NCBI GenBank assembly: GCA_964591805.1
Contig: CAZQDD010000008.1
Location: 27,667-91,666 of the forward strand
DNA length: 64,000 nucleotides
Origin: an uncultured Acidobacteriaceae bacterium
GTDB taxonomy: Bacteria > Acidobacteriota > Terriglobia > Terriglobales > Acidobacteriaceae
Direction: 5' to 3'
Under the pieces are notes generated by a model. That model ran no database searches. It saw nothing but the letters and a program-made list of their open reading frames with translations, and was not told where the DNA came from. A program made the translations under genes and the position numbers. Positions 10,629 to 50,729 of this stretch are shown here, in pieces. Positions within the stretch are counted from its first letter, which is position 1. Each line of letters starts with the position of its first letter.

Positions 10629-10631
10629 GTC

Positions 10632-23114: not shown

Positions 23115-25256
23115 ATGCAGAACTTTACGGTCGCCGACCTGGTGCAGACCACCTTCGCGACGTTGGCCTTCGCTCTATTTCTTCTTCCTCCCGGATATCT
23201 GCTGGGTCTGGCCAGCAACCTTTTCGGCATGCGCAGCCGTTCCGCGGCCGAAAAGATACTGTTCAGCGTGGCGTTTTCCATTGCCGCCACTCCCATCCTG
23301 GCAGTGCTACTGACGCGAATTTCTTCCTACAAGATCACGCTGGCGTTTTTCCTTCTGCTTGCCGTGATCGCCATGGCAAACGTCCTCAGGCAGCTCCCGC
23401 TTCCGGCAGGATTTTTCAGGGGTATTCGGCAGAGCACATGGCTCCTGCTCGGCATGATGCTGGCCTGGTTCCTGGCCGTGCAGTTCGCGCTCGCCGACCT
23501 GCAGATCGGGCATCGTCTCTACATCAGCTTTGTGGCCTTCGATCACTCCGTGCGCCTGCCGCTGGTCGAGGCGGCGGCAAGAGGTGGAATCCCGCCCCGC
23601 AATCCCTTCTACGGCGTAGGGAAAATTCCCGTTCTTCGATATTTCTACTACTGGTATGTCGTGTGTGCCTTGCCGATGCGGCTGGCCGGCCTGAGCGCCA
23701 AAGGTTGCTTCGACGCCAGCGTGTTCTGGAGCGGACTCGGACTCGGGGCCATCATTCCACTTTTCCTGAAGTACTTCCTTGGCGAGACGGAACATCTTCG
23801 CAGAAAATCCGTGATCGGGATCGCGTTGCTTGCGGTGACCGGCCTGGATCTTCTCCCTTATAGTGCAAAGGTCCTGCACCTTCACGCATTGTTCCCCGAC
23901 ATGGAGTGGTGGGACTCAAACCAGGTCACGTCCTGGCTGGGTTCGCTGTTATGGGTGCCGCATCATGTGGCGGCGCTTACGGCCTGCATGGCTGGCCTGC
24001 TCGCGCTCTCCACGGTCGAGGAGGATCACCCGCTGCGACCCAGGGCCTGGGCCGCGGCATTGGCAGGATTGGCCTTTGCCAGCGCCGCCGGCCTCTCGGT
24101 CTACGTGACCTTTACCTTCGCCGTTTTTGCGATTTGCTGGGCGCTGCAGACGCTCCGGCAGAAGAGAATCAAGACCGTTGCCACCTATGTGGCGACGGCT
24201 GCTTTTTCGCTATTGCTCTCATGGCCTTTCCTGCTGGATTTGCTTTTAAATCCGGCGGCTACGGTTGTGGGCTCCTCCCCTGGCGGCGGGCAATTCGCTC
24301 GTTTCGCGATCCGCGATTGTTCCGATGCGCTCCTGCTCCTGGGCCAGTTGGGCCTGCACAACGTCTGGCTGCTCAATCTGGCGAAGCTGCCGGTACTTCT
24401 GATCGTGTACCTCCTCGAGTTCGGATTTTTCGCCCTGATCATGGTGTTGAATCTGCGCAGAGACCGGCGGAACCCGGTTCCGCTGACCAGGCAGCGCCGC
24501 ATGGCGTGGATGATGTTCGTGGTCTGCCTGCTGACAATGAGCATTGCCAAGTCTGACGCGACGAGTCAAAACGACCTGGGGTACAGGGGTATGCTCGTCG
24601 TCCAGTTTGTCCTGCTACTATGGTCGGCACCGCTGCTGCACGATGCTTTCTACCATAAAGGTGCCAGTGCGCCCGTGGGTCCTGAGCCGGCGTGGATCAA
24701 GAGTCTATTGATTTGCACGCTGGTGCTCGGTGTGGCCGGAACCACGTACCAGTTCGTTACGCTGCGCGTTTACGCACCCCTGGCGGACACCGGGAAGTGG
24801 GCGCGTGCGGAAACCTTTCTTGGCGACCCGGGGTTTGGAGAGCGAACCTACTGGATGCGCGAGGGCTTCAGCCGGCTCAACGGACTCACTTCCTCCAGCA
24901 CGTCGGTGCAATACAACCCGGTGCGGGACGAGGCCCTGATCGCCCGTCTGTATTCCACGCGGCAGACGGCTATGGCAGATGCGTTTTGCGGCAGCGCCTT
25001 TGGCGGCGACCTGCAAAAATGCAGGGAGGCGTTTCCGCGCATCGCCTCGGCTTTCAATTCTCCAAGTGCCGCGCACCGCCTGAATCTGGATGGCTTTTGC
25101 GATGACTTCCGGGTGAATGTGCTGGTGGCCACCGATGTGGACCCTGTCTGGCAGGATAAGAGTAGCTGGGTCTGGGCCCGGCCCAGCCTCCTGTCCAACC
25201 CATCGCTGCGCGCAATCCGTTGCGGCACCGCACCTGGTTCTCCCCTCGGGCGATAA
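23115..25256 (+). CDS. Large polytopic membrane protein of unknown function (713 aa)
   Basis: At least 12 hydrophobic segments are followed by a C-terminal soluble region of about 150 aa. I recognise no defining motif. It belongs to the set of large membrane proteins around the cytochrome cluster. Confidence 0.7.
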   Translation: MQNFTVADLVQTTFATLAFALFLLPPGYLLGLASNLFGMRSRSAAEKILFSVAFSIAATPILAVLLTRISSYKITLAFFLLLAVIAMANVLRQLPLPAGFFRGIRQSTWLLLGMMLAWFLAVQFALADLQIGHRLYISFVAFDHSVRLPLVEAAARGGIPPRNPFYGVGKIPVLRYFYYWYVVCALPMRLAGLSAKGCFDASVFWSGLGLGAIIPLFLKYFLGETEHLRRKSVIGIALLAVTGLDLLPYSAKVLHLHALFPDMEWWDSNQVTSWLGSLLWVPHHVAALTACMAGLLALSTVEEDHPLRPRAWAAALAGLAFASAAGLSVYVTFTFAVFAICWALQTLRQKRIKTVATYVATAAFSLLLSWPFLLDLLLNPAATVVGSSPGGGQFARFAIRDCSDALLLLGQLGLHNVWLLNLAKLPVLLIVYLLEFGFFALIMVLNLRRDRRNPVPLTRQRRMAWMMFVVCLLTMSIAKSDATSQNDLGYRGMLVVQFVLLLWSAPLLHDAFYHKGASAPVGPEPAWIKSLLICTLVLGVAGTTYQFVTLRVYAPLADTGKWARAETFLGDPGFGERTYWMREGFSRLNGLTSSSTSVQYNPVRDEALIARLYSTRQTAMADAFCGSAFGGDLQKCREAFPRIASAFNSPSAAHRLNLDGFCDDFRVNVLVATDVDPVWQDKSSWVWARPSLLSNPSLRAIRCGTAPGSPLGR

Positions 25257-25376
25257 ACCGGAAACCGTGAGGCGGGCCGCACCCGGTTGCCATCCGCTGC
25301 GCGGGTTGGCGCGCAATAGAGTCCGGTTGAAACCTTTCATGCGCAATGGGATACTTGAAACGCTTTCGTCGCCATC

Positions 25377-27692
25377 ATGAATTTCCCCGCAGAGAAATCT
25401 TATCGAATTGCCGTTCTGGTCCTTCTCGTTCTGGTGCTGGCAAATGCGCTGGCCGCAGGGCTGCGCACGGTATCGGATTCCGACATGGGCTGGCACCTTG
25501 CCACCGGCAGATACGTTGTCCAGCATCATTCCATCCCCAGCACCGACGTACTTTCCTATACCGCAGCGGGCATGCCGTGGATCTATCCTCCGTTTGCCGG
25601 AGTACTGCTGTACCTGATCTATGGCGCCTTCGGCTACGCGGGACTCAGCTGGTTCTGCGCCCTGGCATGCGGGGCGACGGTGGCGTACCTGGTGCGCAGA
25701 TGTGATCTTGCGTCTATCGTCTTAGCCATGTGCGCCGTGGAGCCGATTGCGTTTCGCACCGGGCCGCGCGCCGACCTGTTCAACACTGTCTTCTTCACCA
25801 TTTTTCTTGGCGTATTGTGGGCGTTCCAGCGGGGGTCCAACAAACGACTGTGGCCGTTGGCGATCACCATGTTCCTCTGGGTCAACGTGCATCCTGGGTT
25901 CATCCTCGGATTGGCCGTGATTGGCGCCTACCTTTTGCTGGAAGCCTGCGAGTTGCCTTTTGCCGGGCGCCGTCCGGCAGCGCTGGAGCGTCTTCGGCAA
26001 GCGTGGCCGTGGCTCGCCGGAACTGTTGCGGTAACCCTGTTAAACCCCTGGGGCTATAGACTTTATTCCGCCTCGTTCACCCTGGCGGGATTGTAAGGTC
26101 AGCAGCAAGGCGCCTTCAACACATCCGCGTTTATCAACGAATTTCTCTCGGTTCCTCTGTCGTCCCATTTGCTGACACAGCTTGTGGATATCAGGCATCC
26201 CGAGAATGGTTTTACCTGGCTGATGCTGGTTGCCATCGTGGTGATTGCCCTGGCATTGTGGCGAACCCAATTCGGCGCGGCGGTAATCCAGGCAGCGGCC
26301 CTCTATCTTGCGGTCGAGCACGCGCGCTACATCGGGCTCTTCTGCGTGACGACCGTGATCGCCGGTGGCACGCTGCTGGGCGAAGCGTTTAGCACCGGTC
26401 CGCCGGAGCCGGGGCCGCAGTTCCGGCCAAAACCTCAACCACTGATTCGCGTGCCGGTGGTCCTAGCGCTGGTTTTCATTTGTGCCATCTGCGCGATCAC
26501 CGTGCTGCACGCGGCCGATTTCATCTCCAACCGTACCCACGTCGTCTTCCGCACCGAGTCTCGTTTTGGCGCCGGCGAAGCATCCTGGTTTCCCGAGCGT
26601 GCCGCCAGTTTCATCCGGCGCGAACGGCTGCCGGGAAACATTTTCGAGGAGTACGGTCTGGGTGGTTTTGCCGCGTGGCGTCTGGGCCCTGAGCACGCAG
26701 ACTTCATCGATGGGCGCTTCGATCACCTGGCCCCCGCGGTGTTGGTAGAAGAGCAGAAGCTTCTGTCGCAGGCGCCCGGCTCGCCAGCCTGGCAGGCTGC
26801 GGCAGACAAGTGGGGCATCAATGTGCTGCTGATTCTGGAGGCGGAGCCCCGGGCCGTTGACCGCGAGGATGCCATGGCTTTCTGCCAGAGCGCAAACTGG
26901 AGTCCGATCTACATGGACGAAATCTCGCTGGTGCTCGTGCGCAATATTCCATCCAACCGGCCCTGGATCGATCGTCTCCAGATCGACTGCCGCATCCAGC
27001 GGCTCGTGCCACCGCCATCGGCTTCGCGTAAAGACCTCTATGACTACTTCGCCAACGCCGGGGGAATGCTTTACGCATTACAACGCGATCATGAATCTGA
27101 GGCGGCGCTGCGGGGTGCCCTGGTTCTTTACCCGGAGGACCCCAACGCAAGATTGGTGCTGGCACAGCTTTACCAACGTCACCAAATGCTGGACAAAGCC
27201 GAGGCCGAATACCGCGCCAGCCTGGCGCTGAGCGAGAGCGATCAGCCCTGGTATGAGCTGGGGCAAATCTATGTGCAGCAAAGGCGCTTGCCTGAAGCCG
27301 GACAGGCATTTGCGCGAGCTGCCCATCTTTCCGTGAATCCGCTGATTCCATACATGGCGCTGGCGCAAGTAGAACTCTGGCAGAAGCATCCCGAAGCGGC
27401 ACTGGAGGCGTTCTCCGGCGCCGAAAGGAGCAGCCCGTACCGCAGCGGAGCGGAATCGCTGGCGCCCGATCTCTATGCGGAGATCGCCGACGGGCGCTCC
27501 GACGCCCAGTTCATGCTTTCCCATCTCTCCCAGGCGATCGAATTTCAGAAGGAAGCCGTGCGGCTCACTCCGTCCGTCGCCAACCGCTGGAACAAGCTCG
27601 CCGATCTCTATGATTCGGCGGGCCAGTCGGATTTGTCCCAGCAGGCGCGAGAGAAAGCGCGAGAGCTGGACCACAACGCGGGTCCACGCTAA
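25377..27692 (+). pseudogene. GT-C-like polytopic membrane protein with a C-terminal TPR domain, interrupted by one in-frame TAA (26094-26096)
   Basis: Track ORFs 25377..26096 and 26169..27692 are in the same frame (both start coordinates divisible by 3), and no other stop lies between them. The joined product (about 771 codons) is colinear with the intact 787-aa paralogue 46844..49207 across the stop: NPWGYRLYS...stop...IRHPENGFTWL aligns with NPWGWRIYS... Confidence 0.7.
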
Positions 27693-28183
27693 ACCGGAAG
27701 TGTCCCGGATCCCCCCTCAGTTGCCAGCCGCTCGCTTGGCCCCATCGAGCGGCTGGGCAAGTGCACCGCAGTGCGGGGGCGGATTCGTGCCATGATCGGG
27801 CGCTGTCCTGCCGGCCCTAATCGCTGGTTTTGATCAGGTCCAGCCTTTCCCGTGCAGCATCCCAAGCGGTGCCTCGTCCCGGCCCGGTCAGGCGACATCA
27901 AAAACGGTAGCAACAATAAGGATGGCGATCCCACACCTCCGGCGCCCTGGAGAGCACCCCGTCGGAGGTGTGGAATATGGCCAATCCCAGCCTTGGACCT
28001 GTGTCAGATTCCTCAACTGACTCCCCAATGGGCGCAAACCATCACCGTTGGAAATATCAACACTTTGAATATCCAGAGGATTATAGTGTTTAGTTTCAAT
28101 AAATTAAGGAGAATGTATGTGCCAGGTCAGTGATGGATTTTGCAACGGCGACACAATTGCACTTTGCTCTGCCGGAGGCAGGA

Positions 28184-29608
28184 GTGGACAGGGCTCTGAG
28201 GGCAATTTCAATCATGGTTCTAGCGAGCGCATTTTCGGCGGCGGCTTGGGCGGGAATCCATCCGGTTCCCCTGGATCCCAAGCAGGATCCCGCGACCTGC
28301 GCTCAATGCCATGAGGACAAAACGAAGGGCAAGTCGGTCCATTCGGCAATTGCCATGGGCTGTACCAGCTGCCACGAGATCAGAGTAAACAGGGACGTTA
28401 CCCGCACAAAACTCCTCACTACCACTACCGTAGCCCTTTGCATCACCTGCCACGCCGACAAGAAAGCTGCTGACATCAAGGGGAAAATTCATCCTCCGGC
28501 GGTGCGCGACTGTGTGAAGTGCCACGACCCGCACACCTCCGACAACAAAAACCAGCTGCTCAAACCCGAAAGTGGAGACACAAAGGATACGAATCTTTGT
28601 TTGAGCTGCCACAAGATCGGGCTCGACGTCCCGAAAGATGGCAGCCGTCACGCCGCGCTGGATATGGGCTGCGACACCTGCCACGTAACCCACAAGACCG
28701 GCGAGCGCGGCAAGCGCGAATTCGACTTTCACCTGACCAAGGATGCGCCGGCGCTCTGCATCGATTGTCACGACCCGAAAGATGCGGCACTCGTCAAGGC
28801 GCACCAGGGACAGCCGTTTGAGAAGGCGGATTGTCTCTCCTGTCACGATCCGCACCAGTCCACCAGCAAGAAGCTGATGGCGAAGTTCACTCACGTGCCG
28901 TTTGCCGGTGGCCAGTGTGATTCCTGCCACGCCCCGGCCAAGGACGGCAAGGTGGTGCTGATCGCGGCGACGACGAAGGAAATTTGCCTGACCTGCCACT
29001 CCGATAAGGGCGAACAGATTGAGAAGGCGAAAGTGCAGCATCCGGGTGCAGCGGGCGATTGCACCGACTGCCACAGTCCGCATGCCGGCAACTCTCCAGG
29101 GTTCCCAAGGCCGAATCCGGTCGCCGTCTGTTTGACCTGCCATACCGAGCAGGCCGAGCAGGGGAAAAAGGCGCACGTTCACCAGCCGGCGTTCGAGCAA
29201 GGTTGCGCTACCTGTCATGAGCCGCACGGCGGTGATAACTTGCACCTGTTGCGCGCCAAGACTCCGAACGCCCTTTGCCTGGAGTGCCACGGTCCGGATA
29301 CCGAGCCGCCCGCCAAGCTGCAGGGTGAGCACATGGTTACCATCTTCGGCGGCAAGGTGAAGCTGCCGGATACGTATTTCGACAAAGTCGTGGTGCTGCC
29401 AATCCGCTATGGCCTCGGCCATCCCGTGAATGGTCACCCGGTCTCTGACTTGATGGATCCGACAGATGTCACCAAGGTTAAGACTCCGTTGTCGTGCTTG
29501 AGCTGCCATCAGCCGCACTCTTCGGCTCACGCCGACCTGTTGATAAAGGATGAGCAGAACAATATGGAGTTTTGCGACAACTGCCACAAGAACAGATTCA
29601 AGATGTAG
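28184..29608 (+). CDS. Periplasmic multihaem c-type cytochrome, 16 CxxCH motifs
   Basis: Sixteen CxxCH motifs were counted, many as CxxCHxPH. The proposed GTG start at 28184 is preceded by GGAGG (28174-28178). It gives the signal peptide (M)DRALRAISIMVLASAFSAAAWA-G. The track start is 28130. Confidence 0.85.
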   Translation: MDRALRAISIMVLASAFSAAAWAGIHPVPLDPKQDPATCAQCHEDKTKGKSVHSAIAMGCTSCHEIRVNRDVTRTKLLTTTTVALCITCHADKKAADIKGKIHPPAVRDCVKCHDPHTSDNKNQLLKPESGDTKDTNLCLSCHKIGLDVPKDGSRHAALDMGCDTCHVTHKTGERGKREFDFHLTKDAPALCIDCHDPKDAALVKAHQGQPFEKADCLSCHDPHQSTSKKLMAKFTHVPFAGGQCDSCHAPAKDGKVVLIAATTKEICLTCHSDKGEQIEKAKVQHPGAAGDCTDCHSPHAGNSPGFPRPNPVAVCLTCHTEQAEQGKKAHVHQPAFEQGCATCHEPHGGDNLHLLRAKTPNALCLECHGPDTEPPAKLQGEHMVTIFGGKVKLPDTYFDKVVVLPIRYGLGHPVNGHPVSDLMDPTDVTKVKTPLSCLSCHQPHSSAHADLLIKDEQNNMEFCDNCHKNRFKM

Positions 29609-29635
29609 TGCAAGTTTGCGGTGGAGAACAGAGAG

Positions 29636-30988
29636 ATGTTCGCAGTTCCTCTAAATTCGGTTCGCGGTGGCAAGTGGATCGCTCTCGCGCTGCTTCTGTC
29701 CGTCGCCCTAGCCGCACCATCGGCGGCTCACGGTGACAAGAAGAAGAAGAACGCCACTGCGCCCACGCCGAGCGCCCCGGCCAAGCCCAATGATTTCTCA
29801 GCGCTGGTCTGGCCCCAGCCTCCCGACATCATCCGGGTCCGCTACGTGGACTACTTCGCCGGGATGAAGTTCGACCGCACCGATGCGGTTGTGGTGAAGA
29901 AGAAGCAAAGCTGGATGGACCGCATGGCAGGTACTCCAGAGGGATCCGAGAGACAGGAAAAAATGCTCAAGGACTTCCCTTACCAGCTGATCGGGCCTTA
30001 CGGGGTCGCCGCCGATTCCAAGGGCCTTGTGTATGTGGCGGATCAGAAAGTGGGCGCGGTCTTCATCTTTAATACGGAAACCAGGGATGTGCAGCTGATT
30101 GCCAACGGCAAAGACGCTCACTTCGAGTGGATCAACGGCATTGCGATTGACGACAACGATCGCGTCTTTGTCTCTGACGGCAAGCTGGCTCACGTTCTGG
30201 TTTTCAACGCCAAGCATCAGATCGAGGGCCAGATCAGGGAAGGCCTGGTGAATCCGAACGGGTTGGCCATCGATACGGAAAATCGTCTTCTGTACGTGGT
30301 AGACACCCAGCAGGATCAGGTTCTGGTGTATGACCCCGACACCTACAAATTGCTGAGGCGGATGGGTACAGGCGGTAAAAAGCATGCCCTGACTACGCCT
30401 GGAGATTTTGCCGCGCCAACCAACGTGGCGGTCGATGCGGATGGGAATGTTTACGTAACGGACACGCTGAATGACCGCGTGGAGATTTTCGATGCGGACG
30501 GCAACTTCGTCAGCACCTTTGGCAAGAATTGTGACTCACCAGGCTGCTTTGAGCGGCCCAAGGGAATTGCCATTGACTCCGACGGGCACATCTGGGTTGC
30601 TGACGCCATGATGGATCGTTTGCAGGTCTTCAACCGCGAGGGCCAGGTGCTTCTGCCTATCGGCTCGCATGGAAACCTGCCCAGCCAGTTCGACTCGCTG
30701 GTGGGAGTAGCGTTCGACAAGACGAAGAAACGGATTCTCACTACTGAGCAGTACCCGGGCCGGATGCAGGTGTTCCGGTATGTAACCGACGCGGAAGCGG
30801 ATGCCGATCGGCAGCGCCAGGCAGAGGAGCGCAAACAGAAGTATGCAGGCGCGCAAGTGCCGTCTCCAGCCGGCAGCGCGGCGGCAAAGCCGGGAGAAGC
30901 GCCGGCGGTGAAGCCGCCCGAAGCAGGCGTACCGCAGCCGGCCGCGACGCCCGCGCAGGTTAGCGCACAAGGATCCGCGGCGAAGTGA
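29636..30988 (+). CDS. NHL-repeat six-bladed beta-propeller protein with a signal peptide and a C-terminal Ala/Pro-rich tail
   Basis: Six repeats of the type P.G.A.D..G..YV.D....R...F are present. Examples are YGVAADSKGLVYVADQK, NGIAIDDNDRVFVSDG, TNVAVDADGNVYVTDTLNDRVEIFD and PKGIAIDSDGHIWVADAMMDRLQVFN. The N-terminal signal is WIALALLLSVALAAPSAAHG. Confidence 0.8.
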   Translation: MFAVPLNSVRGGKWIALALLLSVALAAPSAAHGDKKKKNATAPTPSAPAKPNDFSALVWPQPPDIIRVRYVDYFAGMKFDRTDAVVVKKKQSWMDRMAGTPEGSERQEKMLKDFPYQLIGPYGVAADSKGLVYVADQKVGAVFIFNTETRDVQLIANGKDAHFEWINGIAIDDNDRVFVSDGKLAHVLVFNAKHQIEGQIREGLVNPNGLAIDTENRLLYVVDTQQDQVLVYDPDTYKLLRRMGTGGKKHALTTPGDFAAPTNVAVDADGNVYVTDTLNDRVEIFDADGNFVSTFGKNCDSPGCFERPKGIAIDSDGHIWVADAMMDRLQVFNREGQVLLPIGSHGNLPSQFDSLVGVAFDKTKKRILTTEQYPGRMQVFRYVTDAEADADRQRQAEERKQKYAGAQVPSPAGSAAAKPGEAPAVKPPEAGVPQPAATPAQVSAQGSAAK

Positions 30989-31110
30989 GCCGCGACAAGT
31001 TTGGGGGCCAAAGGCCGCCGAAACGGAGAGACGAACGACCGCTCCTCCGGAAGCTGTAAACACTGAAGAGATTTAAGGCTCTTCACTATTACCAGGAGGT
31101 TTCACCTTTT

Positions 31111-31986
31111 ATGAAAAAGTTCATGCTCGTCCTCGTTGTCCTCGCCCTTGGCACATTCGTCATGGCGCAAATTGGTGTGCCCACGGGTGACGTTCTGGGC
31201 GCCCACTTGAACTACGGCCGTGGTTGCGCGGCTTGCCACTCACCGCACGGCGGTCAGGCTGGTAACGGCGCGGCCCACACTCAGACTGTCGCAAACTCGT
31301 ACCTCTGGGGCCAGGACACCACTGCCCTGCTAGGTCAGACCATCACGTTCAGCGGCAACACCGTTGAAGTTCTGCCTGCCACTCTTGCTGCCGGTTCGCC
31401 TGACGTCAGCGGCCTCCTGATGTGCCTTAGCTGCCATGACGGCAACTATGCCACTGGCGCCATGATGAAGAACGCGATTTATGAGACCGTGCCGCTAACC
31501 AAGTACGGAGCCAACACGATTCCTACCCTGATGGGCAATGAAGGCGCCCTCGGTGTTGGAGCCGGAAGCTACCTTGCCAACCACCCGGTGGGTCTGAATG
31601 CCACCGTCTCCTGCGGCGGACAGTACAACTGGGATTGCGTCCAGGCTGCCAACGGCACCATCTCGATGACCGGCACCAACTCGGCGCAGTTCGTCAAGGA
31701 CTATGGCTTCTTCGTCTCTCTGTCGGCCTATAACAACACTGCGGTCGTCACCTGCACGAGCTGCCACAACCAGCACTTGATGAACATTGTTTCGGTCACC
31801 AACGGCGCGAAGTCCGGTCTGCCGACTGGCTACTATCAGACCATGTTCTTCATTCGCGCGCCCTACAATGGCGCCAACAGCAGCAACGTAGCGTCGAACC
31901 AGAACGCCCAATTCTGCCGCCAGTGCCACGGTGGCGAAGCGAACGAATCGAACGGCGCCGGCGCGACGATCCCAACCACGTTCTAA
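31111..31986 (+). CDS. Small secreted tetrahaem c-type cytochrome (291 aa)
   Basis: AGGAGG ribosome-binding site and signal peptide MKKFMLVLVVLALGTFVMAQ. The four CxxCH motifs are CAACH, CLSCH, CTSCH and CRQCH. Five further His residues are available as distal ligands. The N-terminal 130 aa are colinear with the N-terminus of the 12-haem protein 36283..38217. Confidence 0.85.
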   Translation: MKKFMLVLVVLALGTFVMAQIGVPTGDVLGAHLNYGRGCAACHSPHGGQAGNGAAHTQTVANSYLWGQDTTALLGQTITFSGNTVEVLPATLAAGSPDVSGLLMCLSCHDGNYATGAMMKNAIYETVPLTKYGANTIPTLMGNEGALGVGAGSYLANHPVGLNATVSCGGQYNWDCVQAANGTISMTGTNSAQFVKDYGFFVSLSAYNNTAVVTCTSCHNQHLMNIVSVTNGAKSGLPTGYYQTMFFIRAPYNGANSSNVASNQNAQFCRQCHGGEANESNGAGATIPTTF

Positions 31987-32002
31987 ATTTGTTGCCTTAC
32001 CA

Positions 32003-32040
32003 GGGGGAGAGAAGTTCTCTCCCCCTTACTTTTGTGTTTG
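32003..32040 (+). terminator. Strong rho-independent terminator directly after the tetrahaem cytochrome gene
   Basis: gggggagagaa (32003-32013) pairs with ttctctccccc (32015-32025), followed by ttacttttgtgttt. It starts 17 nt after the stop codon. Confidence 0.8.
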
Positions 32041-32053: not shown

Positions 32054-33076
32054 ATGAAGTTCCAGCTCTCAGCCTGCGCCCTGCTTTTCGTGGCGTTCGC
32101 TTCGCTTTCAGCCCAGCCCGTCCCATCCCATGCCCCAACAAACTACTCCATCGGCGAGGCAACGGCTCCCATGCAGGTGGTGGGCAAGCCCGTTGCCAGG
32201 GTGAACGGCTCGGTGTTAACGGATAAAGACCTTCAAAGTACGATGTATGCAATGTTTCCGTACGCCCGCCAGCACAACGGTTCAATCCCGAAGGCAATGG
32301 AGCCGGACATCCGGGCCGGCGCGATGAAGATGATGGTCTTCGAGGAACTGGTATATCAGGAAGCATTGCGCCGCAAAATGACGGTGCCTCCCGGAAAACT
32401 GGAGAAGGCCGAGGCTGATTTTGCCCGCCGTTTTAACAGCCCAAGCGAATTCCAGCGGTATTTGCAGGTGGAGTTTCACGGCTCCCGGCCGTTGTTGCGC
32501 AGCAAGATCAGGCGCTCGCTGCTGATTGAGCAGCTATTGAAGCTCGAGATAGAGCAGAAGGCGACGGTCTCAGCGGCCGAACTCAAGGGGTATTACGACA
32601 AGAATCCGGCACGTTTCCACGTCGAGGAATCCTTTGCCTTTCAGACGATCTCCATCCTTCCTCCGGCGAATGCGACCCCGGATCAGTTGAAAGAGGCACG
32701 CAAGCGGGCTGGCGAAGCTCTGACCCAGGCCAAGACGGCGAAAACCTACGAGCAGTTTGGATTGTTGGCGGAGAAGTACAGCGACGACGATTACCGCGTC
32801 GTGATGGGCGATCACAAGGCCGTGGAGCGTGCCAAGTTGCCGCCTTCGGTGGTGCAGGCCCTACTGGCACTCGCACCCGATCAGGCCAGCGGCCTGATCC
32901 AGGTCGAGAACGCCTACACGATCGTCCGCTTGAATAAGCACATCATGGCTGGCCAGCAGAAGTTCGAAGATGTGAAAGCAAGTCTGCGGAAAGAGATGGT
33001 AAGCAAAAAGACCGAGCAGTTGCGCTCGGCCCTCGACCAGAGGCTGCACCAGGGCGCCAAGATTGAGGTACTTTAA
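32054..33076 (+). CDS. SurA/PpiD-like periplasmic chaperone with a parvulin-type PPIase domain
   Basis: Signal peptide MKFQLSACALLFVAFASLSAQP. The SurA_N-like segment is VARVNGSVLTDKDL...FEELVYQEALRRK. The parvulin-like C-terminal part is FGLLAEKYSDD...GLIQVENAYTIVRLNKH. I trimmed the track ORF (31931), whose extension overlaps the upstream gene and terminator. Confidence 0.7.
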   Translation: MKFQLSACALLFVAFASLSAQPVPSHAPTNYSIGEATAPMQVVGKPVARVNGSVLTDKDLQSTMYAMFPYARQHNGSIPKAMEPDIRAGAMKMMVFEELVYQEALRRKMTVPPGKLEKAEADFARRFNSPSEFQRYLQVEFHGSRPLLRSKIRRSLLIEQLLKLEIEQKATVSAAELKGYYDKNPARFHVEESFAFQTISILPPANATPDQLKEARKRAGEALTQAKTAKTYEQFGLLAEKYSDDDYRVVMGDHKAVERAKLPPSVVQALLALAPDQASGLIQVENAYTIVRLNKHIMAGQQKFEDVKASLRKEMVSKKTEQLRSALDQRLHQGAKIEVL

Positions 33077-33332: not shown

Positions 33333-35204
33333 TTGTTTGTGACCACCCGTGAGGGCCTTGTGGTGCGCCGTTCCATACGAAATGCCTTTATTCTTTTGGC
33401 CGGGGCTTTAGTATTGACTGCGCCGCTGCTTGCCCAGCTTCAGGTGGGTGACAACCTCAACCTGCGTCTCAATGGCACACTTTCCGCCGGATACAACGGA
33501 GACTACGGAAACCAGACCAGCTCGGATCACAGCCTTGGGCTGGGCGGCTCCGGCACGGCTTCGGGCTATTACTACAGCCCCAATTTCCTCTCCTTTACGG
33601 CCACGCCATTCTTCAACCAGGCACGGGACAACTCCAGCTATCGTTCCATTTCCGATGCCAGCGGCGTGGACGCGCAGACCGCGCTCTTCAGCGGCAGCCC
33701 CTTTCCGGGATCAATCAGCTATTCCAAGTCTTATAACAGCGAGGGAAACTACGCCGTACCGGGGTTGGCCAACTACACCACCCACGGCAACAGCGACACT
33801 TTTGGCCTTTCATGGGCGGAGCGCGTGCGTGGACGGCCAAGTCTCAGTGTAAGCTTCCAGAGGAGCGGAGGCGAGAATTCAATCTACGGCACCGGGTTGA
33901 ATGCCGATTCCACCGCTCATTCCTTCAACGTGAACAGTTCCTATAACTGGGCGGGCTTCGGCTTGGGCGCCTTCTATTACAAGGGTGCTTCCAACTCGCA
34001 GTTTCCGGAGGTCCTTGCCGGTACGCAACAGATCACCGCGACCAACGCGACGGACCACGGCTACGGTTTCACTGCGTCTCACAAACTTCCCTGGAATGGC
34101 TCAGTGTTTTGCAATTTCAGTAATTCCAGCGTGAACACGAGTTACCTGGGCGAAAGCGAAAACTATTCGGTGGACAATTTCAACGCCGCGGCATCGTTCC
34201 AGCCAACCCAGAAATTGCATGCGTCGTTGAGCATGAATTACTCGAGTAACCTCAGCGGCTCCATTTTCGAAACGGTGCTCGCCTCCGGAGGAGTGGTTTC
34301 ACAATCGACCCAGAGCCCGCCTTCGCACGCTGACGATTTCGCGGCCAGTGCCGGTTATGTGCCTCTGCCGAATATGCTTGTGCAGGGCGAAGTCGAGCGC
34401 CGGACCCAGGACTACTTTGGGATTGAATACGGAAGCAATGCCTACAGCGGCACCGGCAGCTATTGGCGTAAGATCTTCGGTGGCAGTTTTAGTACCACCA
34501 TGTTGGTGGCGGACATAACAATTGATGGCAGCCCCCAGAACTCGCTCGGCTTTACCGTCAACACCAATTTCAACCGCCGGTTCGGAGCCTGGACTGCAAA
34601 TGGTAACTTCAATTATTCGCAGAATGCGGAAACGCTCCTCGTTACCTATACGACTTCCCAATACGGCTACGGGGGTGGTGTGAGGCGGCGCTGGGGGAAA
34701 GTGAGTTGGAGCCTTTCCGCTCAGGCAAACAGAAGCGGTCTAACCGGCTTCACGGGTACCAGCAACCAGAGCACAAGCGCGAGTAGCGGCCTCTCTTACG
34801 GGCGCTGGGCCAACGTGGGTGCAAGTTACTCACAGTCGAGCGGAAACGGAATTCTGACTGGGACCGGGGTCGTGACGGTGCCGGTACCCTCGCCCGTCTT
34901 GCCCGCCAGCTCAGTTATACTCTTTGGCGGCCACAGTTACTCAGTCTCGATCGGCAGTTCGCCGTTGCGCAGACTCACCATCGCGGCGGCCTACGCGAAA
35001 TCGGATAGCAACACTGGGGTCGGTTCGACCGGTTCGACAAACACAACTTCGGTGTTTAACACTCTCGTCCAGTACCAATTCCGGAAGATGTATGTGACGG
35101 GTGGTTTCAGCCAGCTGACGCAAGGATTTAGCGCGTCTGGAACTGTGCCGCAGACCATATCGTCGTTCTATATTGGGGTATCGCGATGGTTCAACTTCTT
35201 CTAG
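33333..35204 (+). CDS. Large outer-membrane beta-barrel protein (porin-like, about 615-623 aa)
   Basis: Signal peptide (VRRSIRNAFILLAGALVLTAPLLAQ; the likely GTG start is at 33360/33363). The protein is Ser/Gly/Asn/Tyr/Thr-rich with alternating hydrophobic residues and has no Cys. The C-terminal beta-signal ends YIGVSRWFNFF with a terminal Phe. Confidence 0.75.
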   Translation: MFVTTREGLVVRRSIRNAFILLAGALVLTAPLLAQLQVGDNLNLRLNGTLSAGYNGDYGNQTSSDHSLGLGGSGTASGYYYSPNFLSFTATPFFNQARDNSSYRSISDASGVDAQTALFSGSPFPGSISYSKSYNSEGNYAVPGLANYTTHGNSDTFGLSWAERVRGRPSLSVSFQRSGGENSIYGTGLNADSTAHSFNVNSSYNWAGFGLGAFYYKGASNSQFPEVLAGTQQITATNATDHGYGFTASHKLPWNGSVFCNFSNSSVNTSYLGESENYSVDNFNAAASFQPTQKLHASLSMNYSSNLSGSIFETVLASGGVVSQSTQSPPSHADDFAASAGYVPLPNMLVQGEVERRTQDYFGIEYGSNAYSGTGSYWRKIFGGSFSTTMLVADITIDGSPQNSLGFTVNTNFNRRFGAWTANGNFNYSQNAETLLVTYTTSQYGYGGGVRRRWGKVSWSLSAQANRSGLTGFTGTSNQSTSASSGLSYGRWANVGASYSQSSGNGILTGTGVVTVPVPSPVLPASSVILFGGHSYSVSIGSSPLRRLTIAAAYAKSDSNTGVGSTGSTNTTSVFNTLVQYQFRKMYVTGGFSQLTQGFSASGTVPQTISSFYIGVSRWFNFF

Positions 35205-36286
35205 CCCAAGCGCGCGGAAGGAGCCTGCGGTTGGCTCTGCGGATGGCCTGCGCTGTACTGCTTCTGCTGACGCCGGCGCTGGCGTCGCGGCAGGCCAAAG
35301 TAGCCGATGTGGGTCCGCCCGACCTTTTGCTGGAAGGCGGCCGCAAGCTGAGCTACGAACGCAGCTTCAGCTCCGAACGCGAAGTAAAACCGAAGCGGGG
35401 CTTCTGGAACAGGGTGCTCGACGTTGTTGCCGGCGAACCGGAGTTCCACTACCTGGTTCGCCCCTATAGTGTCATAACCGATTCCCATGGCCGCATTATT
35501 GTGACCGATCCGGGAGCGCACGGGATCCACATCTTCGACTTTACCCAACAGAAGTATAAGTTCATCTCGCGCCGGGAAAATACGAAGGATCCAATGCATT
35601 CTCCGCAATGCGTCGCCCTGGACGCAGAAGACAACATTTACGTGACCGATTCGGATGCGGGCAAAATCTTCGTGTTCGACTCCAGCGGAAAGTATAAGCG
35701 GGTGATCGGCAGTTTGAGGGGCGGCGAAGGCTATTTCAAGCGTCCCACCGGGATTGCTGTCGATTCCTCCGCACAGCGAATTTACCTGACGGATACACTG
35801 CGCAACCAGGTATTCGTGCTCGATATGCAGGGCAACATCCTGCAGAAAATCGGCAAGAACGGCGAGGGCGACGGGGAATTCAACTACCCCACGGAATTAC
35901 GGCTGGCCGGAGAAAGCCTTCTCGTTGTGGACGCGATGAATTTCCGGGTCCAGGCACTGGATCGCTCAGGAGTTTTTCGCTATGCCATCGGCGCGATCGG
36001 TGACGGTGGCGGATCCATGTTCAGGCCAAAAGGGATTGGAGTCGATTCGGAAGGCGATCTCTATGTGGTGGATGGTTTGTGGGCCGTGGTGCAGATCTTC
36101 AACCCCCAAGGCGATCTACTGTATTCCTTTGGAAAATCAGGGACGCAGCCAGGAGAGTTTCAGTTGCCTGCCGGGCTGTTCATTGATCGCAACGACCGTA
36201 TTTACGTGGTGGATTCCTATAACCGTCGCGTCCAGGTCTTTCATTATTACGGATTGCACCAGCAGACCAAGGGAGGTAGTCAATGA
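35186..36286 (+). CDS. NHL-repeat six-bladed beta-propeller protein (second copy)
   Basis: Repeats include PYSVITDSHGRIIVTDPGAHGIHIFD, PQCVALDAEDNIYVTDSDAGKIFVFD, PTGIAVDSSAQRIYLTDTLRNQVFVLD, PKGIGVDSEGDLYVVDGLWAVVQIFN and PAGLFIDRNDRIYVVDSYNRRVQVFHY. The signal-like N-terminus has an ATG at 35186, overlapping the barrel gene by 19 nt. The alternative start is at 35243. Confidence 0.8.
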   Translation: MVQLLLAQARGRSLRLALRMACAVLLLLTPALASRQAKVADVGPPDLLLEGGRKLSYERSFSSEREVKPKRGFWNRVLDVVAGEPEFHYLVRPYSVITDSHGRIIVTDPGAHGIHIFDFTQQKYKFISRRENTKDPMHSPQCVALDAEDNIYVTDSDAGKIFVFDSSGKYKRVIGSLRGGEGYFKRPTGIAVDSSAQRIYLTDTLRNQVFVLDMQGNILQKIGKNGEGDGEFNYPTELRLAGESLLVVDAMNFRVQALDRSGVFRYAIGAIGDGGGSMFRPKGIGVDSEGDLYVVDGLWAVVQIFNPQGDLLYSFGKSGTQPGEFQLPAGLFIDRNDRIYVVDSYNRRVQVFHYYGLHQQTKGGSQ

Positions 36287-38217
36287 GGTCGAAGGTTTTA
36301 TTGGGATGCCTGATGATCGTATTGGCTGCGGGTAACCTGTTGGCGCAGGTTACGGGCGATGTAATTGGCGTGCACAACCTGGGACCGGGAAGCAAGTCTC
36401 CCATTACCGGTACGAGGAATGACATGTGTTCCTACTGCCATGCTCCCCATTCCGGAACTGGAAAAGGGCCTCTATGGAGTCAGCAACTTTCGACCCAGAC
36501 CTACACTCCCTACACCAGTAGCACCTATGTAGAGAAGGGCAATACCCAGCCGTTTGTAGGCGGCCCCAGCAGTCTCTGTCTTAGCTGTCACGACGGCACC
36601 GTCGCGCCCGGAACGACCCAGCCCTATGGCAAGATAACGATGACTGGGACCATGTACAGCGCCGATGTCTTTGGGACGAACCTTTCCAACTCACATCCCT
36701 TCAGCCTCGTTCTTCCACTCAAGGATTCCATAGTTCTGGTTTCGACCCTTGTTTCAAAGCACCAAACGTCTGATCCAACCGGTGCCATCAAGCTCATCCA
36801 TGGCAATATCGAGTGCACCTCCTGTCATAATCCCCACGTCCAGGCCAAGGATCTGATCTCACTGAACTTCCTGGTCCGCGACAGTTCCAGAGGCCAGATG
36901 TGTCTCGCCTGCCATGACCCAACCCGAACCCTGTCAGGACAGGTCAACCCGATGGCGGTTTGGTCGACGAGCATTCACGCCACGGCTACCAACAAAGTAA
37001 CCATCCAGGCCAGCGTTGGAAGCTACAGTACGGTCGCACTGAATGCATGCATCTCCTGCCATGCGCCCCATGAAGCAGGCGGGCCGTTGCGACTGCTCCG
37101 GGGGCCGAACGAACAGGACTGCATCGCCTGCCACAGCGGCGGTTCGAATATGTCTCCCGCCGCACTCAACATCTATGCCGAGTTCAGCAAGGTCGGGCAT
37201 CCGTTCCCGGCGGGCACCAACACCCATGACGCAGACGAAGGCTTCCCGGCTGCCTCTGGTTCCGTCCCACTCGTACTCCTCAACAATAATCGTCACTCCA
37301 CCTGTGCGGATTGTCATAACGCGCATTCCTCCATGCAAGTGACTACGTTTACCGCGCCACCCGCAATACGCGTCTCGCAGAATGGCATTGCCGGTATCAG
37401 CGCGACGGATGGCACGACGATTGTGAATCCTGCGGTCAATCAGTATGAGAACTGTTTGCGTTGTCATGGCACCAGCGCGGGAAAATCCGTGAACGCCGTC
37501 TTTGGTTACTTGCCGGTGCGGGTAGTTGCCGCCGGCGACCCCTTGAATATCATTCCAGAGTTCAGTTTCACGGCCACGTCGAGTCATCCGGTGACGCACG
37601 TCAGCAACAGTAAGTACGCGCAACCCAGCCTGCTCGCCAACATGTTGGATCTCGACGGAATCACCAAGGGACGCCTGACGGGTACGCAGATTCTATGTAC
37701 CGACTGCCACAACAGTGACGATAACCGCGAGTTCGGGGGTGCTGGTCCGGCCGGCCCGCACGGATCCAAGTGGACGCACATTCTCGAGCGCCAATACCTT
37801 GACAATCAGGCGCCGGGACCGGGACAGCCGATTACGAATCTTTACCCAAATCCTGATCTCAGCGTCAATGGCCCCTATGCACTGTGCGGCAAATGTCACG
37901 ACCTGACCAACCAGATCATGCAGAACACCAGTTTCGTCCAGCACTCGCTCCACATCAACACTGGCTTCTCCTGTTCGGTTTGCCACACCGCTCACGGAAT
38001 GGGTACGACCAGCGCAACCATTACGGGCGAGAGACTGGTGAACTTCGACGCGAATGTGGTTGGCCCGAACGGGGCCACGCCCATCTCCTACAATCGCAGC
38101 GCCAATACTTGCACTCTTACATGCCATGGCTACGCGCATAATGCGGACGGATCGGTCACCGCTGACAAGGCTGCGATTCATGGGGTGAAGAACTTGCCCG
38201 CCGGAAAGGGGAAGTGA
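36283..38217 (+). CDS. Secreted multihaem c-type cytochrome, 11 CxxCH motifs plus one CxxxCH motif
   Basis: The ATG overlaps the upstream stop (ATGA), and GGGAGG lies 6 nt upstream. Signal peptide MRSKVLLGCLMIVLAAGNLLAQ. Eleven CxxCH motifs and CTLTCH (38110-38127) were counted. There is no lipobox Cys. Confidence 0.85.
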   Translation: MRSKVLLGCLMIVLAAGNLLAQVTGDVIGVHNLGPGSKSPITGTRNDMCSYCHAPHSGTGKGPLWSQQLSTQTYTPYTSSTYVEKGNTQPFVGGPSSLCLSCHDGTVAPGTTQPYGKITMTGTMYSADVFGTNLSNSHPFSLVLPLKDSIVLVSTLVSKHQTSDPTGAIKLIHGNIECTSCHNPHVQAKDLISLNFLVRDSSRGQMCLACHDPTRTLSGQVNPMAVWSTSIHATATNKVTIQASVGSYSTVALNACISCHAPHEAGGPLRLLRGPNEQDCIACHSGGSNMSPAALNIYAEFSKVGHPFPAGTNTHDADEGFPAASGSVPLVLLNNNRHSTCADCHNAHSSMQVTTFTAPPAIRVSQNGIAGISATDGTTIVNPAVNQYENCLRCHGTSAGKSVNAVFGYLPVRVVAAGDPLNIIPEFSFTATSSHPVTHVSNSKYAQPSLLANMLDLDGITKGRLTGTQILCTDCHNSDDNREFGGAGPAGPHGSKWTHILERQYLDNQAPGPGQPITNLYPNPDLSVNGPYALCGKCHDLTNQIMQNTSFVQHSLHINTGFSCSVCHTAHGMGTTSATITGERLVNFDANVVGPNGATPISYNRSANTCTLTCHGYAHNADGSVTADKAAIHGVKNLPAGKGK

Positions 38218-38374: not shown

Positions 38375-39901
38375 ATGAAGTTGTTGAAGACTATGTCCAT
38401 GAGTTTGGAGTCACCAGCACGCGCAACGCGCAGCGCACACGGAGATGGATTTGCCGTTCCCCCGCTACGGGTTCTCACCCTGCTGCTGCTGTTTAACGCC
38501 GCCGCCGTTTATGAGTCCATTCATCTGACCTCGCTGGCTGATGCTGATGTCTGGTGGCACTTGCGCACGGGTATCTGGATTCTGCAGAATCACGCAGTGC
38601 CGCACAGCGGAGTATTTTCGCAATACCCGGCTTTGCCCTGGACGGCTGGCAGTTGGGGCTATGATGGATTGCTTGCGGCAGCGTATAAGTTATTCGGACT
38701 ACGGGCTGTCCCGCTGTCGTTGATGGTGCTCGAGGTTACACTCGCGGTGTCAGCATTTGTGCTGGCGGGCGGCAGGCGACGGCATTTCTGCCTCGCTGTA
38801 ATCCTCGCCATTGCCGCGCAGTACGCTTTTCTGCACGTGCGTCCCCTGCCCAATCTTGGCTCGCTCGTGTTATTTTCCGTCGAGTTGGCGTTGCTATTCC
38901 AGAGCCGGCGAACGGGCAGTGTGCGAGCGCTCCTCTGGCTGCCTCTTCTATTCGTCCTATGGACCAACTTCGACATCCAGTTCGTCTATGGACTCTACGT
39001 TTTGGGCCTGTTCTTCGTATCAGCGTTCACTGCAGAGATCTGCCGCCGTCGCGGCCTGGCTTGGACCAGCGATGCGCCCACCTTGCCGATGGGAGTGATC
39101 GCGGCGGTCGCCGCCGTCTCCGCGGTTGCCACCCTGCTATCGCCCTATACCTATCACGTCTACGAAGCTGCGATCAAGAATGCCACCCCGGTAGCATATG
39201 TCGCGCAACACCACGCCATGAACTTCCGCCACCCGCAACACTACGTGTTATTGTTGCTGGCCATGGCCGCTTTCCTTACTCTAGGAAGGCAACGCTCGCG
39301 TGATCTGTTCAAAATTACGCTTATGATCGCCAGCGCCATGGTATCGTTTCGCATGCAATGCGATGCCGGGTTCCTTGCCTTGGCCTCCGTGGCTGTGATT
39401 GGCGATGCATTCGCAATCGATAAGTCTGAGACAGAGCAGGAGGCTGGCGCACACCTTGGGAAATGGGAATCCCTGGCGGCGGCCGGACTGCTGTTCGTAG
39501 TGACTGCGGCCGCGGCCTACCGTATTCCCTCCGGCAGCCAAGCGCTGTTGAAGAAGATAGGCGAGAGCTTTCCCGTGCAAGCCTCCGATTACATTCGAGC
39601 CAACCAGCTTCCGAATCCCTTGTTTAACGAATATCAATGGGGAGGTTTCTTGACCTGGTATTTGCCCGGGTACCCGGTGGCCATCGACGGACGTAGGGAC
39701 CTTTATGGCGAAGACATCAACCTTCGCTATTTCCAGGTAACAAGCGCCGAGATTCCTCTCAACGCCGATCCCGACTTCGCCAATGCCCAGACGATCTTGC
39801 TACCTGCCAACTCTCTTATGGCCGAGGCGCTTGCTACCATCCCCGACTTCAAGGTGGTATACCGCGACGCCTTAGCCACGGTACTGGTGCGGCAGAACTG
39901 A
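38375..39901 (+). CDS. Polytopic membrane protein, GT-C-like paralogue family (short form without TPR)
   Basis: 508 aa, about 11-13 TM segments. The first-loop motif is ADADVWWHLRTGIWILQNHAVP, and the C-terminal block is NEYQWGGFLTWYLPGYPVAIDGRRDLYGE. It is clearly homologous to 45326..46807 and more distantly to 25377..27692 and 46844..49174. Confidence 0.75.
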   Translation: MKLLKTMSMSLESPARATRSAHGDGFAVPPLRVLTLLLLFNAAAVYESIHLTSLADADVWWHLRTGIWILQNHAVPHSGVFSQYPALPWTAGSWGYDGLLAAAYKLFGLRAVPLSLMVLEVTLAVSAFVLAGGRRRHFCLAVILAIAAQYAFLHVRPLPNLGSLVLFSVELALLFQSRRTGSVRALLWLPLLFVLWTNFDIQFVYGLYVLGLFFVSAFTAEICRRRGLAWTSDAPTLPMGVIAAVAAVSAVATLLSPYTYHVYEAAIKNATPVAYVAQHHAMNFRHPQHYVLLLLAMAAFLTLGRQRSRDLFKITLMIASAMVSFRMQCDAGFLALASVAVIGDAFAIDKSETEQEAGAHLGKWESLAAAGLLFVVTAAAAYRIPSGSQALLKKIGESFPVQASDYIRANQLPNPLFNEYQWGGFLTWYLPGYPVAIDGRRDLYGEDINLRYFQVTSAEIPLNADPDFANAQTILLPANSLMAEALATIPDFKVVYRDALATVLVRQN

Positions 39902-45117: not shown

Positions 45118-45325
45118 CCCAAATAGTATAAGAATGATTGCAAGGTAAAACTATACCAGCTCCCACACCCTGGAAATGATTTCTGTCCCATCTTGCCTGG
45201 CTAAGGCATCGGTGACATGGACCAGGTCCAGACCTTGGCGCCACGCGGACACCCGCCGCCCTCTCGGCGGCGCAAGGTCCGGCGTTTTCTCCCGTAGGGT
45301 CTTGGATAGCGAGGTGTTCCAGATC

Positions 45326-49174: not shown

Positions 49175-49519
49175 GTTTTCCACAACGCGCAGAATAATTC
49201 CAAACAATAAGCAGCCTTGCTGCCAAACACAAACGCCGCCGCCAACTTCCGGTGGAGTTCCTATCTTCAGTAGTTTACGACGAATCGCGGGATTAACCTG
49301 TTGGCTGCGGCCAATCCTTCTGCGGCGGCTCGCGCGGTTCTCAAGGAACTTTGGCTCATGTCAATCACCCAGCGGCGCAACTCGACCTTTGGGGCATCTC
49401 GCGCACAGGCTGCGCTAGAAGCCGTAAAATCCGGCGTCGCAGTCTGCTCGTCCCCGGACACGCTTCACGTATGTTATTCATAACATGAGACTAGAAGTGT
49501 TCTTTTTGAGCAGCGCCTT

Positions 49520-50332: not shown

Positions 50333-50729
50333 GCAGGTCCTCGCGCCAGGCGCAACCCTTGCGAGCAGTATCGGTTGCGTGGCAGCGTTCCTGGGCGCTT
50401 CGCGGGACAATGCAAAAACTCGCCATGGCCGCCTACCCGCCGCCGGGTGATTTCCAGCCCACCGCGGGCCTTGCGCAGGAGATAAAGTAATATCAAAGGG
50501 GCGGGAATTCACCTTCAGGCCAGCCGGTCCCAGGGTGGAAGTGGGCTCAGCCAGGCTGGCAAGAGCTGGATTCCAGGATGTGGATTTACGCTCATCGTTT
50601 GGAATCATGAGTGAACACACTCGAAAATCGGCGATTGATGCGCGATATGCCCCATGATTGGTCCGGAAATATAACTTTGCAATCTACATAATTCACTCGA
50701 AACAAACCGCTTGCTCGGTAGGTCGCAAT

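Follow-up and report, generated by a model that had tools for sequence, protein, structure and literature searches.

A divergent, enlarged OmcE-family tetrahaem cytochrome as candidate filament subunit in a conserved gene cluster of Terriglobales

On the forward strand of a 64,000-nucleotide stretch of DNA from an uncultured Acidobacteriaceae bacterium (contig CAZQDD010000008.1; the whole stretch is called the window hereafter, and positions are counted from its first letter), a gene at 31111..31986 encodes a small c-type cytochrome with four haem-binding CxxCH motifs, which lies in a cluster with genes for two larger multihaem cytochromes, two beta-propellers, a periplasmic isomerase and a large outer-membrane barrel. 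It had been predicted, from the letters alone, that this tetrahaem protein is an abundant extracellular or polymerising subunit. Profile comparisons indicate that the protein is a full-length but divergent, enlarged homologue of the filament cytochrome OmcE. We give a probability of roughly 0.55 to the reading in which this secreted, divergent and enlarged member of the OmcE family is the most highly expressed product of a conserved Terriglobales cluster for extracellular electron transfer.

The tetrahaem gene, its product and its expression signals

The gene and its immediate surroundings comprise the following features:

30989..31110, + strand: spacer and 5' leader of 122 nucleotides (nt); the preceding gene, NHL gene 1, stops at 30988
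31094..31099, + strand: Shine-Dalgarno sequence AGGAGG, 11 nt before the ATG of the tetrahaem gene
31111..31986, + strand: tetrahaem c-type cytochrome of the OmcE family, ATG start, 291 amino acids (aa), four CxxCH motifs
32002..32036, + strand: intrinsic-terminator-like hairpin and T tract, between the cytochrome and isomerase genes

The product begins with a predicted Sec-type signal peptide (aa 1-19, MKKFMLVLVVLALGTFVMA|Q) that would be cut after A19, so that the mature protein would have 272 aa, and besides this cleavable peptide it has no N-terminal membrane anchor. The haem motifs start at C39, C105, C215 and C269, the first of them reading CAACHSPH, and nine His residues are present, five of which (H32, H46, H56, H158 and H222) lie outside the CxxCH motifs. 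The original prediction gave 32040 as the end coordinate, which covers the terminator, the open reading frame (ORF) itself stopping at 31986; its description of the protein (about 270 mature residues, four CxxCH, five additional His, CAACHSPH) is borne out.

A search of a set of 5.8 billion proteins returned 3091 relatives of the tetrahaem protein at E <= 1e-3, which clustering at 50% reduced to 452 representatives. The best 120 of the 3091 are at least 65% identical to the query, and the few sources that are named are Terriglobales or Terracidiphilus metagenome-assembled genomes. For a wider view of the family, 40 diverse homologues, down to 30% identity, were aligned. All 40 carry exactly four CxxCH motifs; H32, H158 and H222 are invariant, H46 is present in at least 90% of the sequences, and the four CxxCH, D110-G111 past motif 2, P159 and E279 are likewise invariant or nearly so. 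Because H56 is not conserved, even in close homologues, the family has exactly eight conserved His residues for its four haems. The bis-His ligation that had been envisaged is thus possible, but the "spare" ligand that was thought to accompany it disappears.

The protein ends in a conserved C-terminal tail of 18 aa (aa 274-291, window 31930..31983), (S/A)NE..G...(P/V)T(T/A)(F/Y), which here closes in ..PTTF. Within this tail E279 is invariant, the final residue is F or Y in most of the 40 diverse homologues, and the whole resembles the C-terminal signal of outer-membrane proteins. Two further cysteines, C168 and C176 (SCGGQYNWDC; window 31612..31638), are invariant in the close subfamily and not in the wider family; they probably form a disulfide within an insertion relative to OmcE. 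The five N-x-S/T sequons that had been singled out as notable are indeed present, but this number is at the chance level (shuffled sequences, mean 4.06, standard deviation 1.74; P = 0.38) and most of them are not conserved across homologues.

The expression signals around the gene were also as predicted, with the 122-nt spacer, the AGGAGG and an 11-bp hairpin with a T tract all in place. The hairpin begins 16 nt past the stop codon of the tetrahaem gene, and its stem (32002..32026) has 11 pairs, seven of them G-C, closed by a 3-nt loop; the tail behind it reads TACTTTTGTG. The minimum free energy of -21.8 kcal/mol (z = -3.8) was not matched by any of 200 shuffled sequences. Between 27.5 and 40.5 kb there is no other terminator-like site with more than nine pairs, and the nine-pair site found there is the same hairpin, one base in.

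For the conservation of these signals, one genome per GTDB species was scanned with the alignment of close tetrahaem relatives, which gave 419 loci, and the best 80 of these were inspected. Nearly all of the 80 are labelled Acidobacteriota, mostly as Terriglobales lineages (Acidobacteriaceae, Korobacteraceae, Sulfotelmatobacter and Terracidiphilus are represented), three records having other labels; many of the isolate names, as far as names can tell, point to bogs, palsa, SPRUCE and Danish soils. In 79 of the 80 loci a hairpin with a T-rich tail, mostly of -16 to -23 kcal/mol, lies within about 30 nt of the tetrahaem stop codon, and the stem sequences vary between loci. When only hairpins of -15 kcal/mol or below with a T-rich tail are counted, 91% of the 80 loci have one after the tetrahaem gene, against 9-30% for the other five cluster genes that were scanned in the same way (9-17% for the 12-haem gene). 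A hairpin of -20 to -30 kcal/mol also directly follows omcE in all four OmcE-type loci examined. The hairpin at 32002..32036 is probably a partial terminator or a transcript-stabilising 3' end, and such a conserved, junction-specific element fits a tetrahaem transcript that would be produced in, or maintained at, higher amounts than those of the assembly genes behind it. Transcripts of major pilin genes are likewise in excess over those of the assembly genes downstream of them.

On the 5' side, 56 related loci were aligned on their start codons, and their consensus has AGGAG(G/A) about as far from the ATG as in the window. The 122-nt leader yielded no sigma-70-like promoter, and a conserved stabilising hairpin upstream of the Shine-Dalgarno sequence was rejected as a candidate (median z = 0 over the 56 loci). 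A palindrome, GTGTTGCAACAC, recurs 20-30 nt upstream of the Shine-Dalgarno sequence in five related loci (L023, L024, L027, L032 and L042), and the window has a counterpart in the same place, GAAGAG..CTCTTC; it may be an operator site.

Homology to OmcE and kinship with the 12-haem cytochrome

When a profile of the 40 diverse homologues was compared with all PDB chains by hmmsearch, the top match was 9YUQ_N (E 2.7e-12), nearly end to end; the entry was confirmed to be the OmcE bundle of D. soudanensis WTL. The second match was 7TFS_A, the OmcE filament of G. sulfurreducens (E 2.7e-4), and no OmcS chain was found even at E <= 10. Profile-profile comparisons with hhalign gave a probability of 99.0% (E 2.8e-18) against the 9YUQ sequence, rebuilt from the printed alignment, and 99.6% against a 32-sequence OmcE-family profile in local mode. 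In global mode the latter comparison reached 99.87% (E 1.1e-30) over 226 columns, pairing all four CxxCH motifs, the CHxxH of motif 3 and the residues ahead of motif 4. The placement in the OmcE class, which had been offered as an inference, is thereby upheld.

From these alignments a signature common to the tetrahaem and OmcE families can be written as H..CxxCHxPH..LW..CLSCHDG..(N/D)HP(V/I)G..CxSCHxxH..CxxCH, in which the four further conserved His residues stand in the same order in both families. The sole positional shift concerns the N-terminal His, which lies about 18 residues ahead of motif 1 in OmcE and 7 residues ahead of it in the tetrahaem protein. The equivalence of these two residues is bridged by the 12-haem cytochrome encoded downstream in the same cluster (36283..38217), a paralogue with the long, OmcE-like spacing. 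Its His is paired in the alignment with that of the OmcE "KHD", and the mature 12-haem protein starts with QVTGDVIGVH, close to the QIGVPTGDVLGAH of the tetrahaem protein.

The original prediction had already noticed that the tetrahaem protein, over its first 130 or so residues, runs colinear with the 12-haem N-terminus, and the relation is confirmed by BLASTP (E 6e-9) and hhalign (98.3%). More precisely, the 12-haem protein opens with an OmcE-like two-haem module of some 145 residues (window 36283..36720), which matches the OmcE profile in hhalign at 98.8% (E 1e-16). This kinship suggests that the N-terminal module of the 12-haem protein may dock on the same interface as a tetrahaem subunit, making it a candidate for the base or tip of a polymer. 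It also opens another explanation, namely that the 12-haem protein is itself the long-range element, as has been proposed for the EET1 cluster discussed below, and that the tetrahaem protein is a minor cap, stopper or adaptor with the docking module in common. The OmcE-like N-terminus of the 12-haem protein is in keeping with this, as is a published AlphaFold3 (AF3) model that matches 7TFS at a TM score of 0.70; moreover, the authors of the OmcE study discuss OmcE-like "stopper" proteins with a ninth histidine, and the tetrahaem ORF has nine. However, conservation of the ninth His, H56, breaks down already among close homologues, the alignment with OmcE covers all of the tetrahaem protein but, in the 12-haem protein, just the N-terminal 145 or so residues, and the consensus Shine-Dalgarno sequence together with the junction-specific terminator marks the tetrahaem gene, not the 12-haem gene, as the source of the abundant product. 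We consider this explanation improbable.

Matches of the tetrahaem protein in Pfam are generic (Cytochrome_C7, 29.7 bits; Paired_CXXCH_1, 30 bits) and cover the haem-motif stretches alone. Such hits, and the name "cytochrome c553" that one source gives the protein, could be taken to indicate a tetrahaem cytochrome of the c3/c7, NapC/NrfH or c554 kinds, working as a soluble electron shuttle in the periplasm or in association with an enzyme. Yet the hits extend no further than the haem motifs, and no model of the NapC/NirT, NrfH, NrfB and c554 families in Pfam and NCBIfam (PF03264, PF13435, PF22678 and the NrfH TIGRFAM) was listed as a match at E <= 0.01, so that the family match that was to speak against the original prediction did not occur. 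The protein also has no membrane anchor, Pfam and NCBIfam scans found no reductase or other oxidoreductase partner gene in the cluster, and its strongest and only full-length relatives are the OmcE filament subunits. A periplasmic shuttle thus appears highly improbable.

The conserved cluster and its published counterparts

The genes that surround the tetrahaem gene in the cluster, together with a cytochrome maturation pair 12 kb downstream, are as follows:

28130..29608, + strand: 16-haem cytochrome with paired CXXCH motifs, DmsE/GSU2203-like, 16 CxxCH (Pfam, NCBIfam)
29621..30988, + strand: six-bladed NHL beta-propeller 1 (Pfam NHL, DUF5128), with a signal peptide and no lipobox
32054..33076, + strand: SurA-like periplasmic peptidyl-prolyl isomerase/chaperone (Pfam Rotamase_2, SurA_N), in the position of UetB
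33333..35204, + strand: large outer-membrane beta-barrel of 623 aa, ending ..WFNFF, about 28 strands modelled
35186..36286, + strand: NHL-repeat beta-propeller 2, overlapping the barrel gene by 19 nt and the 12-haem gene by 4 nt
36283..38217, + strand: 12-haem cytochrome, with 11 CxxCH and one CxxxxCH (CTLTCH)
50658..53686, + strand: ResB and CcsA, system II cytochrome c maturation (Pfam ResB, Cytochrom_C_asm)

The 16-, 4- and 12-haem proteins are the sole cytochromes in the window. About 70-80 of 84 Terriglobales loci retain the order of the seven genes, with the isomerase gene adjoining the tetrahaem gene in 80 of the 84, and the same order recurs around a homologue of 45% identity, again with ResB and CcsA nearby. 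The overlaps at 35186..35204 and 36283..36286 suggest translational coupling of the barrel, NHL2 and 12-haem genes, which form the published EET1 core; unlike these, the tetrahaem gene is free-standing in its layout. In five loci (L005, L011, L069, L071 and L081; ~10001..10880 in each) extra tetrahaem copies occur away from barrel, isomerase and propellers. These orphan copies are 64-74% identical, most have their own downstream hairpin, and one genome holds three copies.

A minimal omcE cluster has been described as two multihaem cytochromes, two beta-propellers, OmcE and a large barrel beside resB/ccsB, and a large barrel and a beta-propeller nearby have been used as the criterion for nanowire-type OmcE homologues (bioRxiv 10.1101/2025.10.22.684050; Bond, Wang and colleagues). 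Both elements occur here, as the barrel at 33333..35204 and the NHL propellers at 29621..30988 and 35186..36286. For comparison of gene context we used the metagenomic OmcE-type loci L090, L085 and L091, the first of which has the order purHDE, multihaem cytochrome, NHL, multihaem cytochrome, NHL, OmcE-like gene, barrel and then ffh. Two multihaem cytochromes, two NHL propellers, a large barrel and nearby ResB/CcsA are thus common to both kinds of cluster, and the subunits have in common a Sec signal peptide, four CxxCH motifs, profile homology over the whole length of OmcE and a strong terminator after the gene. The gene order differs, a SurA-like isomerase is inserted in the window cluster, and the barrels of OmcE clusters are longer (740-785 aa, against about 620 aa). 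The ResB/CcsA pair lies beside OmcE-type clusters (L085) as well as beside the cluster of the 45%-identical homologue (L089).

Among the neighbours, the 16-haem protein is 27% identical (E 3e-19) to its positional counterpart in an OmcE-type cluster, also a cytochrome, and is a candidate periplasmic electron relay. NHL propeller 1 is 27-33% identical to the propellers of OmcE-type clusters, with which it has an N-terminal WPxPP motif in common; one-to-one orthology of the propellers is not resolvable, as identities are 26-33% for all pairs. The barrel protein has no Pfam match. Its AlphaFold2 (AF2) model, built on an alignment of 38 homologues, has about 28 long antiparallel strands, and the PDB fold that it matches best is that of MtrB, from the Mtr complex of Shewanella (6R2Q_B, E 4e-11, TM 0.48). 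The barrel is a candidate secretion or anchoring pore.

By description, a counterpart in gene order is the uet cluster of Ca. Tenderia electrophaga, in which a tetrahaem cytochrome (UetA), a prolyl isomerase (UetB) and a barrel (UetC) follow one another as in the window. A predicted 28-strand barrel, two NHL proteins (UetH/I), an 11-haem UetJ in place of the 12-haem protein, and CcsAB and tetratricopeptide repeat (TPR) proteins nearby extend the likeness. The uet cluster differs in that uetH/I and uetJ come after intervening genes, and the trihaem c7 proteins UetD/E/G and the cupredoxin UetF were not found in the window, which has a 16-haem cytochrome instead. Uet has been proposed for electron uptake in autotrophs, in a model with UetA and UetJ as conduit cytochromes of the pore and surface, and its authors also speculate on polymerisation.

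Some likeness extends to OmcS, whose motif 1 has the same CxxCHxxH form and in which His16 ligates a haem of the next subunit; unlike the window protein, OmcS binds six haems. Among the companion genes of OmcS are those for a prolyl isomerase chaperone, a channel and a beta-propeller.

A three-gene core named EET1 (Porin-NHL-CytC) has been reported from Terriglobales of bogs, where it is transcribed in deep peat, and its large cytochrome was named a "13-heme OmcE-like MHC" (multihaem cytochrome), the source of the AF3 model mentioned above (Fiorito et al., bioRxiv 10.64898/2026.05.27.727921, and supplement). The barrel, NHL and large OmcE-like cytochrome of EET1 correspond to 33333..38217, and the barrel resembles MtrB at TM 0.48 in both cases; EET1 is almost certainly the same locus type as the window cluster. 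Four members of the window cluster (tetrahaem gene, isomerase, NHL propeller 1 and 16-haem cytochrome) go unmentioned both in the main text of that report and in the EET1 section of its supplement, and the words "Tetraheme" and "nanowire" are absent from the main text. The census of OmcE homologues, for its part, lists five phyla, Acidobacteriota not among them (bioRxiv 10.1101/2025.10.22.684050). The window protein is a divergent addition to the OmcE family from Acidobacteriota, in a cluster that has already been described in part.

Fiorito et al. read EET1 as a porin-scaffold-cytochrome conduit, and on this view the tetrahaem protein could be a non-polymerising cytochrome at the surface or inserted in the pore, present at one copy per barrel and linking the periplasmic 16-haem protein to the extracellular 12-haem protein as in the Mtr and Uet models. 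MtrB is, after all, the best fold match of the barrel, the model for UetA and UetJ proposes exactly such a role, and eight His residues can serve four haems in cis. MtrCAB is comparable in having a large outer-membrane barrel flanked on either side by multihaem cytochromes; the window cluster nevertheless has no sequence homology to MtrA, MtrB or MtrC, the small cytochrome is OmcE-like rather than MtrA-like, and the barrel model has about 28 long strands against 26 given for MtrB (Fiorito et al.). The tetrahaem protein, in addition, has its full-length homology to filament subunits and not to MtrA/MtrC or OmaB/OmcB, a component needed at 1:1 would require no dedicated conserved terminator, yet 91% of the loci have one, as omcE loci do, and orphan copies lie away from any barrel in some genomes. 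Taken together, a conduit role for the tetrahaem protein seems unlikely to us.

A possible route of assembly and its weight

It is very probable that the tetrahaem protein is an OmcE-family homologue in an OmcE/Uet-type cluster, and the profile homology, gene context and conserved terminator also lend support to the original idea of a highly expressed, possibly polymerising subunit among assembly genes. Whether it forms homopolymeric filaments we regard as an even chance, its polymerisation, extracellular location and abundance being inferred. In such a scheme, Sec would export the apoprotein and system II (ResB/CcsA) would attach the haems, while the SurA-like isomerase and the NHL propellers would keep the coil-rich subunit competent for assembly. 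The subunit would then pass through, or anchor in, the barrel of about 28 strands and polymerise head to tail at the surface as OmcE does, with one interface haem completed by H32 or H46 of the neighbouring subunit. The 16-haem protein would feed electrons across the periplasm, and the partial terminator would set a high ratio of subunit to machinery. Because it has the same N-terminal OmcE-like module, the 12-haem protein could attach to one end of the polymer, as an adaptor at its base or tip; the authors of the OmcE study found no such component of the wire in Geobacter operons (bioRxiv 10.1101/2025.10.22.684050). The more specific proposal that Terriglobales of peat build an unrecognised type of nanowire, with a tetrahaem polymer, export through a 28-strand barrel, a SurA-like chaperone and a 12-haem base or tip adaptor, is tentative, and we would sooner doubt than accept it in all its parts.

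Several observations weigh against the preferred reading of an abundant OmcE-type subunit. With the single tetrahaem sequence, phmmer found no match among all PDB chains at E <= 10, and Foldseek found no meaningful match in PDB for its AF2 monomer model. This model was made without haems, is coil-rich and of low confidence (predicted local distance difference test score 69, below 50 in the N-terminal half), and the Foldseek result was for these reasons taken as uninformative; Foldseek is reported to fail for OmcE itself. The tetrahaem protein is about 70 residues longer than OmcE, whose precursors have 218 and 232 aa, with insertions between the DHP motif, motif 3 and motif 4, and OmcE is without the conserved C-terminal tail. 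The barrel of the window has no sequence similarity to two barrels of OmcE clusters, either by BLASTP or with a 67-sequence HMM (hidden Markov model), the propellers of OmcE clusters are lipoproteins whereas those of the window have no lipobox, and the identities between the two sets of propellers are at paralogue level. OmcE-like tetrahaem sequences are, besides, widespread and by implication not all wire-forming (bioRxiv 10.1101/2025.10.22.684050). The eight His residues, moreover, are equally compatible with ligation entirely in cis.

To our knowledge, solved structures of cytochrome nanowires are limited to those from Geobacter, one Desulfuromonas and two archaea. With the tetrahaem gene taken as an OmcE-sized homologue and probably the major subunit, the model of the cluster would change from a three-gene porin conduit to a seven-gene OmcE/Uet-like assembly system. 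The gene also provides a concrete protein to seek in peat metaproteomes and in cryo-electron microscopy of extracellular fractions, and the 12-haem partner with its OmcE-like module is a testable candidate for how wires start or end. If the proposal is true, long-range electron transfer to peat organic matter would be open to a phylum that ranks among the most abundant in soil. Terriglobales are counted among the dominant bacteria of northern bogs, where their anaerobic respiration is an open question linked to CO2:CH4 ratios (recent preprint).

As for the flanking regions, the genes that the original prediction took for glycosyltransferase-like belong to a block of polytopic membrane proteins (38375..39901 and 45176..46807 on the + strand; 39986..41488, 41542..43431 and 46844..49207 on the - strand) that has no match in Pfam, NCBIfam or PDB even at E <= 10, so that this part of the prediction is unsupported. 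Across the flanking genes scanned, from about 12.6 to 58.2 kb, no glycosyltransferase family was found, and with it none of the optional glycosylation block (GT2/4/39) of OmcE clusters. The polytopic block occupies the place that glycosylation genes have in the omcE clusters of Geobacter, such a role being unproven for the block. Two of its members, 38375..39901 and 45176..46807, are paralogues (37% identity, E 1e-95) with a common C-terminal PVAIDGRxDLYG motif, and the protein of 46844..49207 has C-terminal TPR repeats.

Further downstream there are TPR proteins, and the region 50658..58195 contains, with ResB and CcsA, a HAMP histidine kinase, a sigma-54-dependent response regulator and HemA, and it is possible that the ResB/CcsA pair, the kinase and regulator and HemA are maturation and regulatory partners of the cytochrome cluster. 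Upstream of the cluster, two consecutive ORFs of 713 and 239 aa without a family match (23115..26096) lie between TPR proteins; elsewhere the 713-aa ORF has few matches and the 239-aa ORF weak ones, on the opposite side, and both are fully conserved in the lineage of the window.

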